A DNA stretch of 64,000 nt from Alphaproteobacteria bacterium (GTDB lineage: Bacteria > Pseudomonadota > Alphaproteobacteria > SHVP01). Of this stretch, positions 3,282-56,432 are shown piece by piece. Where the stretch lies: positions 6,476 through 70,475 of the forward strand of contig JAYQVF010000001.1 in assembly GCA_038148335.1 (NCBI GenBank), given 5' to 3'. Made by a program: the position numbers and the translations under genes. The first letter of the stretch is position 1, and the number at the start of each line of letters is the position of its first letter. The notes under the pieces were generated by a model. It made no database searches, was not told the origin of the DNA, and worked only from the letters and a program-made list of their open reading frames with translations.

Positions 3282-4122
3282 ACATCGCCGCGAACGTCTG
3301 CGACGGCGCGACGATCTCGGACGCGGCGGCCAGCACTTGCAGATCTGGGTTGCGACCGGTCGCCCGGAGAACGCCGTAGACTCCCGACACCGCCAGCGAC
3401 AAAGCTTCGGGTGGCGATGTCCCATCCGCCAGGCGTGCGGCGAGGATCGCGGCAAGCAGGTCACCTGCACCATGCGCCGGGCTGTTCACCAACGGAGTCG
3501 TCACGTGCCACGCGTTTTCGCCGGCAAGCATGAACGTGCGCGCGCGGTCGTCGGGCGCGTCCCCGGTGCAAACCGATGTGACAACGACGACTTGGGGCCC
3601 GGAAGCCTGCAGGCGCGCCGCCGCCGACCAGACCGCCGCGTCATCCGCCGCCGGAGCACCGGTCAGATACTCGAGCTCGAAGTGGTTCGGGGTGAGCACG
3701 TCGGCAAGAGGAACCAGGGTTTCCGCCACGGACCTGGCCACCGCCGCCGGCACGTAGAGGCCCTGCGCACGGTCGCCGAGAACCGGATCGCAAACATAGC
3801 GAGCCCCTCGGCCGGACTGCGCGCGGACCGTCGGCACCACACCGGCGATGATCCCGACGTGGTCGGGGTCGCGAAGGTAGCCGCTGAGAACCGCATCGAC
3901 CGACGCCAGCAGACCGTTCTCCCGCAACGCTGCCAGCATGCGCGCCATCGTAGCCGACGCCAGCGTCTCGCCGGCGAAGGACCGGCCGGCCGGATGGTTG
4001 GAGAAAACGACCGTCGGCACCTCCCACAGCTCGCGTCCCAAGAGCGTGAAGACATGGCGTGCGACGGCATTGCCGACGTGTCCGGCAACGACATGAGAGT
4101 GAAACGAGAGCGTTACATTCAT
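3250..4122 (-). CDS. pdxY: pyridoxal/pyridoxamine kinase (PdxY/PdxK family)
   Basis: Motifs SHVVAGHVGN, DAVLSGYL, CDPVLGD and GAGDL match the ribokinase-fold PdxY. Start taken at the internal ATG (MNVTLSF); the 3' end is convergent with asd and overlaps it. Confidence 0.8.
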   Translation of the reverse strand: MNVTLSFHSHVVAGHVGNAVARHVFTLLGRELWEVPTVVFSNHPAGRSFAGETLASATMARMLAALRENGLLASVDAVLSGYLRDPDHVGIIAGVVPTVRAQSGRGARYVCDPVLGDRAQGLYVPAAVARSVAETLVPLADVLTPNHFELEYLTGAPAADDAAVWSAAARLQASGPQVVVVTSVCTGDAPDDRARTFMLAGENAWHVTTPLVNSPAHGAGDLLAAILAARLADGTSPPEALSLAVSGVYGVLRATGRNPDLQVLAAASEIVAPSQTFAAMSRPPASRGGG

Positions 4123-17822: not shown

Positions 17823-17871
17823 AACCGGCATTCGCCCTTGACGCAACCGGGCGTAAAGCGTAGTTAGCCCG

Positions 17872-17960
17872 CGTGGTGATTTGAGCCGACCGGCTTGCGG
17901 CCACGTAAAAGAAGCAGCTTAAAAGGTCGGAGCGACAACCCGGCTCCTGCCGGGTTTTTT
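17872..17960 (+). ncRNA. candidate SAM-II-type riboswitch (metA/metZ leader) with intrinsic-terminator expression platform
   Basis: GUGAUUUGAGCCGACCGGCUUGCGGCCACGUAAAAGAAGCAGCUUAAAAGG shows a GCUUGC-loop hairpin and an A-rich AAAAG...GCU.AAAAGG tail characteristic of SAM-II. It is followed by the hairpin CCCGGC-UCCU-GCCGGG (17939..17954) and a U6 tract at 17955..17960, 15 nt before the metZ ATG. Confidence 0.5.
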
Positions 17961-17975
17961 GTTGGGAGCTGGACA

Positions 17976-19178
17976 ATGGCCGACACAGGGAAACGCAAGG
18001 ACTCGACACGCTGGCGGCGGCAGACGCTCGCGGTGCGCGGCGGGCAATCACGCTCGAATTTCGGCGAAACGAGCGAGCCGATCTATCTGACCTCCGGTTA
18101 CGTCTACGACGCTGCCGAGCAGGCGGAGGCGCGGTTCAAGGGACAGGACGACGGGTTCATCTATTCACGGTTCTCCAATCCGACCGTCGCCACCTTCGAG
18201 GAACGTATCGCAGCCATCGAGGGCGCCGAACGCGCAATGGCGACCGCAACCGGGATGGCCGCGGTGAATGCCGCGCTGATGTGCCAGCTGAAAGCCGGCG
18301 ATCACGTCGTCTCGGCGCGGGCACTCTTCGGGTCTTGCCGCTACATCGTCGACGAAATCTTGCCGCGCTTCGGCGTCGAGGTGACCCTGGTCGACGGCGG
18401 CGACCTCGATCAATGGAAAGCGGCGCTGCGTTCCACGACAGTGTGCGGCTTTCTCGAGACGCCTTCCAACCCGATGCTCGACATCGTCGACCTGCAGGGG
18501 GTTGCCAATATCCTCCACGCCGCAGGCGCGCGCCTTGTCGTCGACAACGCCTTCGCCACGCCGGCGCTGCAGCGGCCCGGCGAGTTCGGCGCCGACATCG
18601 TCGTCTACTCCGCAACCAAGCATATCGACGGCCAGGGCCGTTGCCTGGGCGGCGTCGTTCTCGCCAGCGATTCGTTCATCGAGGACACGCTGAAGCCCTA
18701 TCTCAGACATACCGGACCGGCGTTGAGCCCATTCAACGCCTGGGTCATGCTGAAGGGGCTCGAGACGCTGAACCTACGTGTGGAGCGGCACTGCGCCTCG
18801 GCCGCGGCGATTACCGACTATCTTGCCAAACACGGCAAGGTGTCGCGCGTGATCTATCCGTTTCTCGCCAGTCACCCCGGCAATACGCTGGCGCGCAAGC
18901 AGATGAGCGCCGGCGGTGGCATCATCACCTTCGATATCGAAGGGGGAAAGGAAGCAGCGTTCCGCTTTCTCAATGCCCTGAAGATCGTCGATATTTCCAA
19001 CAACCTCGGCGATTCGAAGAGCCTGATTACGCATCCGGCTACCACAACCCATCAACGGGTCGACGAGGCGGAGCGGCTGGCCCTAGGAATTCTGCCGACG
19101 ACCGTGCGCCTTTCGGTCGGACTTGAGGATGTGGATGATCTGATGGACGATATCGACCAGGCGCTGGCGGCCTGCTAG
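17976..19178 (+). CDS. metZ: O-succinylhomoserine sulfhydrylase
   Basis: ATG at 17976 preceded by GGGAG. Cys/Met-metabolism PLP enzyme with SNP...FE motifs and the PLP-Lys region ([10 protein letters not shown]). Confidence 0.88.
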
Positions 19179-43322: not shown

Positions 43323-44243
43323 TTGGGATATAAGCGCCCCATGCCTGCACCGAAGCAATCTCCGAAACTCGCCGAGACCGCGCGCACCCTTGCCGAAGCG
43401 CTCCCGTATATGCGCGAGTTCAACGACCAGACCTTCGTCGTAAAATTCGGCGGCCATGCCATGGGGGACGAGGACCTCGCGATCTCGTTCGCCCAGGACA
43501 TCGTGATGATGAAGCAGGTCGGCATCCATCCGGTGGTTGTGCATGGCGGCGGTCCGCAGATCGGCGCCATGCTCGAACGGCTGCAGATCGAGAGCAAGTT
43601 CGTCGACGGCCTCAGGATTACCGATCAGGCGACCGTCGACATCGTCGAAATGGTCCTTGCCGGATCGATCAACAAGCAGATCGTCGACAGCATCCATCGC
43701 GTCGGCGGCACGGCAATTGGACTATCGGGGAAGGACGGCCGGCTCATCGAAGCGCGCCAGCTGCGGCGGACGACCCGCGATCCCGAATCGAACATCGAGA
43801 AGGTGCTGGACCTGGGTTTCGTCGGTGAGCCGGCGCACATCAATACAAAGGCCCTCGACGTCCTGCGGCAATCCGACATCATCCCGATCATCGCACCGAT
43901 CGGCGTCGGCAAGGCCGGCGAGACCTACAACATCAATGCCGACACCGCCGCCGGGGCGATCGCGGGTGCGCTTGGGGCGTCCAAGCTATTGATGCTGACC
44001 GACGTCGCCGGCGTTCTCGACAAGAACGGCGAACTCGTTCCGTCGCTGACGGAGAGCCAGGCGCAGGAACTGATGCGGGACGGCACTATCTCTGGCGGCA
44101 TGATCCCAAAGGTCGAGACCTGCCTCGAGGCCGTCCGCTGCGGCACCGAGGCGGTCCATATCCTGGATGGCCGAATCAAGCATGTCCTGCTGCTGGAGGT
44201 CTTCACCGCACACGGCGTCGGAACGATGATCCGCGCCGACTAG
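43323..44243 (+). CDS. argB: acetylglutamate kinase
   Basis: AAK family with [19 protein letters not shown] and the typical ArgB C-terminus. Confidence 0.93.
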
Positions 44244-45523
44244 GCGAGCGGCGCCGGCCTGTCGGTACCGGTGGCGAAATAGGCCAGGTACCACACCATC
44301 TCTTCGTCCGTCATTGGATAGTCCGACCCGCCGCGCGGATTGAGCACGTCGCCCGGCCGCAGACCGAAGACGCTACGCTGCAGGCTGACCGCCGTTCTCA
44401 TCGTGAGGTGCGCCTTCCAGCACAGGGCGGCGAGCGGCCGCGGCGCACGAGCGCGCAGAATGGCCCGTACATGACCGGGCGTCAGGTCCGCCTTCAGCGC
44501 CAGCGCGTGCTCGACGAATCCGCTTTCAGACGCTTCGGCCGCCGCAGAAATGGCATTGTCGTCGAGTTGGCCCGAGAGGTGGGCCATCCTGGCGCGGGCA
44601 GCCGCAGCGTCCTCGGCTTCTCGTGTCGAGGCATCTTCCTCTTTGAGACGTTCCTTCACCTTGTGCCGGACAAAACGTTCCGTTTCCGGATCGAGGTCGC
44701 CCCGCTCTGCCAGTTCGTCGAGCAGCGCCGCGGCAACAAAGCCGGCTATGCGCCGAACCGCAGCCGCCGACAGCTTCGGGCGTCGGACGAGCGGGCGGTG
44801 CCAGATCGGGTGTTTGGGCGCCGCCGCGATGATGCTGTCCAGGGTGTCCTCACGAATTTGAGCTCCGTGGTTCGACAGCAAGGTGGCGATCGCGCCCTCT
44901 TGTCCGGTGGCGACGATAGCGTCGCAAACCGCGGGGTTAAGCCTTTCGCGCAGCGAGACCGACGTGACGACTTCGGGATCGCGTGCATTCGCAACGACCT
45001 CGAGGAGGTCATCGTCCGTCAGCAGGACCGAGTATTGAAGAACCGGCGCGCAGACCATCGTCTCTGCGTCGCGGGCGAGGCGCGCGACCAGTTCCGGCGG
45101 GATGTTTGTAGCCGACTTGATTTCCTCGGCAACGATCCGCCGCACCTTCGGCAGTTGATCGTCGGCAAGCGTCGACAGGATGTTCAGGGTCATCTCCTGA
45201 AGCCGCTCGCTCCCGGCTTGGTCAAGGCCGGGCACGAGTCGCCCGATCTTGCGGGCCAGCACCATACGGACTTCCTCGTCCGAATCCGACGCCAGAAGCT
45301 GGTCGGCACGGCGGGGCGACGATGGATTCCGGGCAACGGCGCGCCGCACTTCGGCAACCGAGTCGGCTGCGAGAAAGTAGAGAATCTCCGGACGGGCGTC
45401 GGACCTCCGGGCGAGATCCTCACGCACGGCGGGCTCCGGGTGGCGGGCGAGTTCTCTCTCCTGCTCATAGGAGATGGCCGGCTTTTCCTTCCCCTCGGCC
45501 CAACCGAAGAGGCGGTCTAGCAT
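44240..45523 (-). CDS. DUF2336-like alpha-helical repeat protein, function unknown
   Basis: Start at the internal ATG 45523 (MLDRLFGW). It overlaps the upstream GGDEF gene stop as ATGCTAG, and the preceding 69 codons of the ORF are not used. HEAT/ARM-like repeats are recurrent in alphaproteobacteria. Confidence 0.55.
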
Positions 45524-46641
45524 GCCTCTCCCGCCGCTTGGGCCTGCCCGGGAAGCGCCGATATGGCGAACCGTCCCTTCCCGGCCCGCTTGGCCCGATA
45601 CATTGCCTCGTCGGCGCGCGTGACCAAGCCGTCGAGCGGCTCTTCGGAACTCGGGTCCGTTACCGCCACGCCGATCGAAACCCCCAGCGGATGATCCTCG
45701 TCGCCGGAGAACTGTTTCAGCGCCTGGCATTCCGCGAGTAGCGACTCAGCCTTGGATGCGGCGCCATCCTCGTCGGTGTCCTCGAGCCACATCGCGAACT
45801 CATCTCCGCCGAGGCGTGCGACGGTGTCGCCGACACGGCTGGTCGAGGTCAGGAGTTGGGCAAGGAAGATGAGAGCGTCGTCGCCGCGTTTGTGGCCGTG
45901 AACGTCGTTGACCCGCTTGAAGTTGTCGAGATCGATAAACAGTAGAGAAGCCTTGCGCGATGTCCGGCGCAGCGCGCGCAGACGCAAGCCGACTTCCTCG
46001 GAAAAAGCGCGGCGATTGAACAACTGAGTGAGCTCGTCCGTCCGCGACAGTTCCTCAAGAAGTTCGCCATTCTCGATCTGGGCAAATGCAATGCCCAGAT
46101 GATTCGCTACGCCGGCGAGCAGGCTGCGGTCGGTTTCGTCCCAATAGGAATCGTCGTCGCGAGCCACGCAGATCGCGCCGTTGATCCGGTCGCGGTAACG
46201 CGCGACGTTGACCAGGACGTGAAGCGTGGAATCCTCGGTCTTGACGAATAGCTCCTCGTCGCCGTCGCGCAACTGCAGGCGGACAGCCTCGACGATCGGG
46301 CGCGGCGGCGGGCCCTCCGGACCGGCAAACTGGACGGCGCCGGTAAACGAGCCATCGCGCCGCGCCCGCACGATCCAGCAAAACCGGGCACCCAAGACAT
46401 GGGCGGTGGCGCGTGCCGCAGCGCCGAGCATGTGCTGCGGTTCAGCCTCGTTGCGCATGGCGTCGACGATATCGTCGAGCAACTGTTGACGCAGTTCGGC
46501 GACTTCGAGGGCGTGCTCCTGGCGCTTTTCGGCCGTGACATCCTTGCAGACGCCGCGGTTGCCGACCCAGCGCCGCTCGTCGTCGAAGACCGGCTTCGAC
46601 GACACCAGGAGGCACGCCGGGTTTCCCTCCGCGTCCCGCAC
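45517..46641 (-). CDS. C-terminal fragment of a PAS-GAF-GGDEF diguanylate cyclase (second half of PAS, then GAF-like, then GGDEF)
   Basis: GGDEF motif (RLGGDEFAM) and the RxxD I-site region, with a GTG start at 46641. It is in the same frame as ORF 46669..47217 and separated from it only by a TAG at 46669..46671 plus 9 sense codons. Confidence 0.75.
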   Translation of the reverse strand: MRDAEGNPACLLVSSKPVFDDERRWVGNRGVCKDVTAEKRQEHALEVAELRQQLLDDIVDAMRNEAEPQHMLGAAARATAHVLGARFCWIVRARRDGSFTGAVQFAGPEGPPPRPIVEAVRLQLRDGDEELFVKTEDSTLHVLVNVARYRDRINGAICVARDDDSYWDETDRSLLAGVANHLGIAFAQIENGELLEELSRTDELTQLFNRRAFSEEVGLRLRALRRTSRKASLLFIDLDNFKRVNDVHGHKRGDDALIFLAQLLTSTSRVGDTVARLGGDEFAMWLEDTDEDGAASKAESLLAECQALKQFSGDEDHPLGVSIGVAVTDPSSEEPLDGLVTRADEAMYRAKRAGKGRFAISALPGQAQAAGEAC

Positions 46642-46668
46642 CCAGGTTTCAGCATCGTCGTAACGCGA

Positions 46669-47217
46669 CTATCCCCAGAACGGTGCAACCAGGTCTGCAT
46701 CGTCTCCTGCAATCAGGTCTTGCACATCCATGCCGACCAGTTCGCTTGCGGCGTAGCCTAGGGCGCCGCGACTGGAGACATAGGAAAAGGTCCTGTCGGT
46801 CTTCGTTTCCCAGGAGAAATCCGAGGAGCACTCGACCAGATCCTTGAACATCTGCCGCGAAGCGACAAGCGCCGTCATCAGGCTCTGTTCGAGTTCGGCA
46901 TGCTTGCCCAGTGCCAGCACATGGCTTGTCCCGCCCCCATCCCGATTCAGCGGAACCAAGAGGAACTCGACTGCATCGTCCTGCACCAACAGCGAGGCAC
47001 TCCGCACCGTTCCGTCGCGCGCCGCGTTGAGCACGCCGGCGAGCATCACCTCGTCACCGGCCTGGGCCAGGAGATCGGCGGCATTGCTGCCCGCGCTGTT
47101 CGCGGCGACGACATGACCGGCAGCCGAAAAAAGGAGCGCTGGGCCCGGGAAAGCGCCGAGAATCACCCTGGCGTCCACGCCCAAGTTTGCCGGTAATCTT
47201 TCGCTGTCGGAGGTCAT
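46669..47217 (-). CDS. N-terminal fragment of the same sensor diguanylate cyclase (sensory/PAS N-half), terminated by in-frame TAG
   Basis: 182 aa ending ...DLIAGDDADLVAPFWG*. The PAS fold continues after the stop (SRYDDAENWVRDAEGNPACLLVSSKPVFDDERRWVGNRGVCKDVTAEKR). Confidence 0.65.
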   Translation of the reverse strand: MTSDSERLPANLGVDARVILGAFPGPALLFSAAGHVVAANSAGSNAADLLAQAGDEVMLAGVLNAARDGTVRSASLLVQDDAVEFLLVPLNRDGGGTSHVLALGKHAELEQSLMTALVASRQMFKDLVECSSDFSWETKTDRTFSYVSSRGALGYAASELVGMDVQDLIAGDDADLVAPFWG

Positions 47218-47445
47218 CGGAATACGCGCACGTTGCCCCGAAACCGCTCCCTCAGCAAGATGATTCGCCCTGCGTCGCGCGGCGCAATTTGCCCCGTATT
47301 TGTAGGGTTTTCCGGCCTTTTACGGCGTCTGGCGCAAGCGCCCGAAACGGCATCGGAAGACCGACGCGACGCGCACGACCTCGGGCCCGGACGTTGACAC
47401 CCCCCAAGCGACCGGTATTTTCCTCGCGGACAAATGTGAGGGAAG

Positions 47446-48291
47446 GTGATGACTGACGCGTTGGAAAAGACCATCGACGAAGCCTGGGAAGCGCGGGACG
47501 GAATCGGCCCCGCAACCACGGGCGCAGTACGGGAGGCCGTCGAGGCGGCACTCGATGCGCTTGACCGCGGCGAACGTCGGGTCGCCGAGAAGCGCGCTGA
47601 CGGTTGGCACGTCAACCAGTGGCTCAAGAAAGCCGTCCTTCTGTCGTTCCGCCTCAACGACATGGAGGCCATTCCCGGCGGGCCTGGCCGCGACACAACG
47701 TGGTTCGACAAAGTCCCGTCAAAGTTCGCCGGCTGGGATGCGCAGCGCTTCGCCCAAGCCGGACTGCGCGCGGTGCCAAATTGCGTCGTCCGTCGCTCCG
47801 CCTACATTGGCAAGGGTGTTGTGCTGATGCCTTCCTTCGTCAATCTCGGCGCCTATGTCGGCGACGGCACCATGGTGGATACCTGGGCGACAGTCGGAAG
47901 CTGCGCCCAGATCGGCAAGAACTGTCACATTTCCGGCGGCGCCGGGATCGGCGGCGTCCTTGAGCCGCTGCAGGCGAACCCGGTCATCATCGAGGACAAC
48001 TGCTTCATCGGCGCGCGTTCGGAAGTCGCCGAGGGCGTGGTCATCGAGGAAGGCTCCGTGCTGTCGATGGGCGTCTTCATCGGCGCCAGCACCAAGATCG
48101 TCGATCGCTCGTCGGGTGAGGTCACACGGGGACGCGTACCGGCCTACTCGGTCGTCGTCCCGGGCGCGCTGCCTGGAAGACCGCTCGCCAACGGCGAGGC
48201 AGGGCCGTCGCTGGCTTGCGCGGTGATCGTCAAGCGGGTCGACGAGCAGACCCGCTCGAAGACCTCGGTCAACGAACTCCTGCGCGACTGA
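47446..48291 (+). CDS. dapD: 2,3,4,5-tetrahydropyridine-2,6-dicarboxylate N-succinyltransferase
   Basis: 281 aa with left-handed beta-helix hexapeptide repeats and a DapD N-terminal domain. Confidence 0.93.
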
Positions 48292-56326: not shown

Positions 56327-56432
56327 CAGGCGGGAGGTTGGTTAGGTGACCCGGCAGCATCCCGTTACGGCTGCTTCCTTCCGGACCTGACCGGGTTGGC
56401 GAGCGCTCCCGTCCACCGCCAACCTCCCGGGC
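56327..56432 (-). ncRNA. ffs: signal recognition particle RNA (4.5S RNA)
   Basis: Minus strand has GGUCAGGUCCGGAAGGAAGCAGC (the conserved domain IV motif) flanked by a long closing helix GGGAGGUUGG...CCAACCUCCC. Located directly upstream of dnaX. Confidence 0.8.

Follow-up and report, generated by a model that had tools for sequence, protein, structure and literature searches.

A probable recent nonsense mutation, apparently private to one strain, interrupts a conserved PAS-PAS-GAF-GGDEF diguanylate cyclase gene in an alphaproteobacterium

The stretch considered here, hereafter the window, comprises 64,000 nucleotides of contig JAYQVF010000001.1 from an alphaproteobacterium (Alphaproteobacteria bacterium, GTDB lineage SHVP01; assembly GCA_038148335.1). 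Its minus strand carries, at 45517..47217, a single reading frame of 567 codons which on translation is interrupted by one internal stop at codon 183. It is proposed, with a probability of roughly 0.8, that this stop is a recent C-to-T nonsense mutation (Q183*) that arose in the lineage of this strain within a conserved gene for a PAS-PAS-GAF-GGDEF diguanylate cyclase. Ten related contigs carry CAG at the same codon and the TAG appears private to the strain, which favors the recent nonsense mutation that an earlier note on this DNA had listed beside a sequencing error and a split gene. The elements of the locus are given below, with residues numbered along the read-through protein; those marked “model” derive from the AlphaFold2 model of an intact orthologue, P0001, which is 98% identical and is modelled at a mean predicted local distance difference test score (pLDDT) of 87.7.

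46672..47217, minus strand: upstream fragment, codons 1-182, with its ATG at 47217 (182 amino acids; open reading frame list and translation), containing a divergent PAS-like domain 1, a linker helix and the first half of PAS domain 2 (model)
46669..46671, minus strand: premature amber TAG at codon 183, the altered base being plus-strand 46671 (sequence)
46642..46668, minus strand: nine sense codons, SRYDDAETW (codons 184-192), between the TAG and the first in-frame start codon
45517..46641, minus strand: downstream open reading frame, from GTG codon 193 to the natural TAG at 45519..45517 (374 amino acids; open reading frame list)
Residues 16-106, minus strand: divergent PAS-like domain 1 (model)
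Residues 110-131, minus strand: linker helix (model)
46507..46863, minus strand: PAS domain 2 (PAS2), residues 119-237, broken by the TAG (TIGR00229 on P0001, PAS_9 and model)
Residues 228-256, minus strand: long helix after PAS2 (model)
46084..46440, minus strand: GAF domain, residues about 260-378 (PF01590, a marginal 24.8 bits against a cut-off of 22.4)
45574..46041, minus strand: GGDEF catalytic domain, residues 393-548 (PF00990, 143.7 bits against 23.8)
45826..45837, minus strand: RxxD inhibitory site, RVGD, residues 461-464 (translation)
45796..45810, minus strand: GGDEF motif, residues 470-474 (translation)
44240..45523, minus strand: DUF2336 gene downstream of the cyclase (427 amino acids; PF10098, E 2e-47)

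The coordinates that the earlier note gave for the two open reading frames are exact, and both the sequence and the list of frames place them in one frame with the TAG and nine sense codons between them; the residues that it quoted after the stop as AENW read AETW in the sequence, one residue off. The adjacency of the two frames was given no weight by itself, since a scan of the whole window (64.6% G+C) turned up about 100 cases of two long stop-free stretches sharing a frame. Because such adjacency could arise by chance, the case for one gene rests on homology across the TAG. More than 100 full-length homologues of 545-616 amino acids were retrieved from a large protein collection, every one of them a single chain. 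Twenty-two aligned homologues run gap-free through the stop position, an alignment of 105 is colinear across it and holds no orthologue split at codon 183, and one continuous frame is present in 19 of 20 orthologous loci from GTDB species.

From profiles and model together, the read-through product is predicted to be a single PAS-PAS-GAF-GGDEF diguanylate cyclase. PAS_9 (PF13426) matches residues 152-229 at 36.5 bits, against a cut-off of 27, only in the joined read-through protein and falls below the cut-off in a Pfam profile search of either half separately, which bears out the earlier suggestion of one continuous PAS domain across the stop. On P0001, TIGR00229 covers residues 119-237 at 42 bits (cut-off 22.9), and the model shows PAS2 at residues 134-226 as a five-stranded PAS fold with intervening helices (strands 134-139, 143-147, 186-194, 200-211 and 217-226). 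The domain order PAS-GAF-GGDEF given in the earlier note is upheld by profiles for these three domains and is extended by the additional PAS-like domain that the model places at residues 16-106. The GAF region forms a compact alpha/beta domain in the model (residues 260-392), the GAF_2 and GAF_3 profiles scoring slightly under their cut-offs for this part of the cyclase. The GGDEF match is strong (PF00990, E = 5e-42 to about 1e-41; TIGR00254 on P0001, 140.1 bits against a cut-off of 37.4), and the modelled domain spans residues 402-552. The RxxD site sits five residues upstream of the GGDEF motif, and R461, D464 and G470-F474 are invariant across the 105 homologues, from which the ancestral protein would bear the hallmarks of an active, product-inhibited cyclase. 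Within the family, two of the GTDB loci (L025 and L026, about 3400-3700) lack the GAF segment, corresponding to query residues of about 245-385, while PAS and GGDEF stay in frame, and represent a natural PAS-GGDEF variant.

The model of P0001 puts residue 183 on a PAS2 loop that connects helix 178-181 to strand 186-194, such that a break at this point parts the two N-terminal strands and helices from the three-stranded C-terminal sheet. Of PAS2, the upstream fragment retains strands 134-139 and 143-147 together with the short helices; codons 184-192 make up most of the first strand of the C-terminal sheet (strand 186-194), and GTG codon 193 falls at the end of that same strand. The downstream open reading frame holds the last two PAS2 strands, a linker helix, GAF and GGDEF. 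Column 183 itself is variable among the 105 homologues, being occupied by R, D, T, Q, H, E, N or A.

The ancestral codon can be read from two sets of relatives. Four contigs of a sister species, two from ENA and two from Logan (L001-L004), align with the window at 93.5% nucleotide identity over up to 13.7 kb; they were found via an exact look-up of P0001 and all four have CAG (Gln) at codon 183. Closer still, the 90% cluster of P0001 holds three 566-residue proteins from Joint Genome Institute (JGI) metagenomes, and six conspecific contigs from six JGI metagenomes (L087-L092) align at 98.8-99.0% nucleotide identity over up to 13.7 kb, five of the six being indel-free relative to the window. 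All six have CAG at codon 183, and Gln occupies this position in the proteins P0001 and P0123-P0125. At plus-strand position 46671 the window has A where its relatives have G. Because all ten related contigs carry CAG, which is one of the four one-step codons that the earlier note had listed as candidates for the ancestral state, the TAG is read by this comparison as a derived C-to-T transition (CAG to TAG) that is private to the strain of the window. Elsewhere, the best match in a scan of GTDB species was 73%, the species of the window itself not being among the matches, a 35-mer that allowed either pyrimidine (Y) at the mutated site had no exact match in the JGI metagenomes, and a protein-based scan of the same metagenome collection found no relative closer than 71%.

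Apart from the stop, the gene shows no sign of decay. Relative to the sister species, the ratio of non-synonymous to synonymous substitution rates (dN/dS) stands at 0.035 for the whole gene, at 0.051 over codons 1-182 and at 0.026 over codons 184-566, and seven neighboring genes range from 0.006 to 0.147. Relative to the conspecifics, the cyclase gene has 6 non-synonymous to 16 synonymous differences and its 12 neighbors 38 to 64 (Fisher p = 0.47 for neighbors versus cyclase gene). Both halves thus appear to be under strong purifying selection with no excess of amino-acid change. An old pseudogene under relaxed selection was rejected on these figures, as neither the regional dN/dS values nor the counts against neighbors show relaxation; because there is no relaxed constraint or amino-acid excess, the mutation is likely to be very recent, and the stop would be very young relative to even the approximately 1% divergence within the species. 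Three amino-acid changes are private to the cyclase of the window. V250I and E557G are changes toward the commonest residue of the family. The other, I465T (codon 465, 45823-45825, minus strand), lies directly after the RxxD site in the strand leading to GGDEF, in a column where Thr is absent from the 105 homologues and V, I or L is found in 96; it is a single observation and was given no weight.

It is improbable, in light of the assemblies at hand, that the TAG is a sequencing, assembly or consensus error overlying a true CAG and an intact gene. Gene calls in two Logan assemblies, of runs SRR26337534 and SRR26337535, include precisely the same 182-residue product, and the contigs concerned match the window at 100% identity, with the TAG, over 3.9 and 1.8 kb; the two products of the window are recorded, in addition, from a 94-kb NCBI contig. 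Because the same TAG is present in two separately assembled runs, a random sequencing error appears unlikely, and the error option of the earlier note is reduced to a possible but unlikely one. The surrounding 13.7 kb is without indels or any other broken gene relative to the conspecifics, all 12 other genes of the syntenic block being intact and colinear with those of relatives, on which ground an error-ridden local assembly was rejected. In addition, a further 135 scattered positions distinguish the window from the conspecific contigs, and the window is therefore a distinct strain rather than a mis-called copy of conspecific sequence. What an error would explain is that the cyclase gene is without any other sign of decay, and at least one further doubtful nonsense call, also of a single base, is present among the conspecific metagenome contigs. 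In L090 (1566-2084), a conspecific JGI contig, a G-to-T change splits the peptide deformylase gene def into 116 and 49 residues; both the window and L087 have an uninterrupted def, and the call in L090 probably reflects an error or a minor variant. This case provides a baseline for the trust to be placed in single-contig nonsense calls. A genuine TAG could also be decoded, by a suppressor tRNA or through programmed read-through, in which event full-length protein would be made. Residue 183 is a variable loop position, the gene lacks decay, and near-cognate read-through of UAG commonly inserts Gln, so that on general grounds such insertion would restore the wild-type sequence. However, stop-codon usage indicates that TAG is decoded as an ordinary stop in this genome. 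It terminates 9 of the 13 orthology-validated genes in the syntenic block, this same cyclase and DUF2336 included, and is the commonest genuine stop in the window, ending 30 (59%) of 51 open reading frames with high G+C at third codon positions (16 TGA and 5 TAA), a heuristic set that contains at least one spurious antisense frame (44408..45520). TAG is normally the rarest stop codon in bacteria, and its dominance in this lineage looks unusual; distant relatives use TGA in the majority (57 TGA, 25 TAG or 26%, and 16 TAA). Further, the premature stop is conserved in no relative, all of which have CAG, the only tRNAs found in the window are tRNA-Gly(CCC) and tRNA-Arg(ACG), with no suppressor tRNA among them, and the base after the premature TAG is U, which is generally a strong termination context in bacteria. 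Amber recoding was rejected on stop-codon usage and on the non-conservation of the stop, and full-length synthesis by this route is exceedingly unlikely.

Likewise improbable is a functional split, in which translation would restart at GTG 46641 or at ATG 46431 (codon 263) and yield a sensor-less GAF-GGDEF cyclase that is free of PAS control and keeps its coupling to DUF2336. The downstream frame, its GGDEF motif and its RxxD site are all intact, and the GTG stands 27 nucleotides past the stop, near enough in principle for termination-reinitiation. However, no Shine-Dalgarno sequence precedes this GTG, where pairing with the anti-Shine-Dalgarno sequence amounts to only -0.3 kcal/mol, and the codon sits at the end of a beta-strand in the model, so that the product would begin with two orphan PAS strands. 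The ATG at codon 263, at the start of GAF, is preceded by GAGG (-6.4 kcal/mol), but at a distance of 12 nucleotides, past the usual spacing. A strong Shine-Dalgarno sequence may not be obligatory here, because that of the native start of the gene is also weak (-1.9 kcal/mol). A scan of 44000-47700 for minus-strand promoters and terminators found nothing above shuffle expectation, and no promoter-like site within the gene. Comparison with relatives also speaks against a split: none of the 105 aligned homologues is divided at this point, the conspecifics are intact, and the 20 species loci are contiguous in all but one, with a different and independent break in that one. The arrangement is also too recent for selection to have shaped it. 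The split-gene option of the earlier note thus finds no orthologue divided here, no Shine-Dalgarno sequence at its proposed start and a start codon placed inside a PAS strand. In the exceptional locus (L022, 3240-3400, from the Rhodospirillaceae metagenome-assembled genome RH-23may17-353), a frame change affects the same PAS domain at query residues of about 202-209, with TGA in the original frame; this break, some 20 residues downstream of codon 183, is either an independent disruption or an assembly error.

Several points nonetheless weigh against a strain-specific nonsense allele. Support for the TAG comes from assemblies, such that an error that is systematic or lies in the consensus is possible, as is a mixed population; the NCBI contig and the two Logan assemblies may go back to shared samples, which limits their independence; and the lone nonsense call in def of L090 (GAA to TAA), an essential-type gene, indicates that such calls arise when this species is assembled. 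That no decay is seen fits a very young pseudogene, and equally well a gene kept functional through read-through or restart. In addition, position 183 tolerates many residues, and low-level read-through would give an essentially wild-type protein.

The gene downstream bears on what the loss of the cyclase may entail. The ATG of the DUF2336 gene overlaps the cyclase stop in a 7-nucleotide ATGCTAG (45517..45523); this overlap, which the earlier note had pointed out, is seen at 45523..45517 and is kept in close relatives, and DUF2336 probably shares a transcript with the cyclase gene and is coupled to it in translation. A DUF2336 gene follows the cyclase on the same strand in all 20 loci from GTDB species (L007-L026), down to 34% cyclase identity, among them loci of Thalassobaculum, Roseospirillum, Dongia, Pacificispira and Denitrobaculum. 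Because DUF2336 always follows the cyclase across such distant relatives, a functional pair is suggested. In one of these loci (L025), the DUF2336 gene switches frame. The pair is apparently unstudied. A literature search on DUF2336 returned incidental mentions only, and one on SpbR together with PopZ found nothing, while SpbR by itself led to a relevant Caulobacter preprint. Caulobacter SpbR (CC2323) offers a partial likeness, in that the downstream protein of the window is a DUF2336 protein with a weak match to the NCBIfam SpbR model; at 127 bits against a cut-off of 400, however, it is not an SpbR equivalog. Apart from this locus, the window also contains an alphaproteobacterial S-adenosylmethionine riboswitch (SAM_alpha, 17863-17942, plus strand, 66.7 bits) upstream of the open reading frame 17895..19178, and a bacterial small signal recognition particle RNA (56330-56427, minus strand, 58.3 bits).

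Among proteins of known structure, the top Foldseek matches (E 1e-28 to 7e-16) are DosP, an Idiomarina bacteriophytochrome diguanylate cyclase and a LOV-activated diguanylate cyclase, in all of which, as in the intact cyclase, sensor domains come first, followed by a helical linker and GGDEF. DosP is PAS-PAS-GGDEF-EAL and the Idiomarina protein PAS-GAF-PHY-GGDEF, whereas the sensor part encoded in the window is PAS-PAS-GAF, with the second PAS interrupted in this strain. WspR, PleD, GcbC and others match the GGDEF domain of the window by sequence, and similarity to the solved chains at the level of sequence is confined to this domain. As a genetic event, the interruption resembles strain-specific nonsense pseudogenes, including GGDEF/EAL alleles, in being a single-base stop in an otherwise undecayed gene that conspecifics keep intact, and it resembles strain-specific GGDEF/EAL loss alleles in that one of many cyclic di-GMP (c-di-GMP) inputs is hit. 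It differs from these in nothing essential, except that the present case is known from a metagenome-derived contig. GGDEF gene content is well known to vary between strains, and the change described here is an ordinary strain-specific nonsense allele of an already known kind rather than a new gene arrangement.

Under the proposed Q183* mutation, translation would end at codon 183 and give a fragment of 182 residues, consisting of PAS1 and half of PAS2, that would be unable to complete the PAS2 fold. The full-length cyclase would be lost or strongly reduced. Some 1.15 kb of mRNA would be left untranslated, such that translational coupling to the overlapping DUF2336 gene would be gone and DUF2336 expression possibly lowered through polarity. 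In sum, one c-di-GMP input would be represented by a null or hypomorphic allele, which may have arisen by neutral drift or by selected loss in the local population. A more elaborate scenario holds that the amber allele dominates the local population as a selected rewiring, in which low-level restart at GTG193 or ATG263 yields a sensor-less GAF-GGDEF cyclase, PAS-dependent control is removed and DUF2336 is uncoupled. This is distinctly improbable; if true, it would constitute a natural experiment on the cyclase-DUF2336 (SpbR-like) module, which is conserved among Rhodospirillales-type bacteria.

For the nonsense allele favored here, the appropriate annotation of the locus is a single diguanylate cyclase gene disrupted by Q183* rather than two genes, and its significance beyond annotation is small. 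The strain probably lacks one PAS/GAF-controlled c-di-GMP input that is kept by its conspecifics, and the TAG strain and the CAG strains may thus provide a natural mutant and wild-type pair with which to study the cyclase-DUF2336 gene pair.

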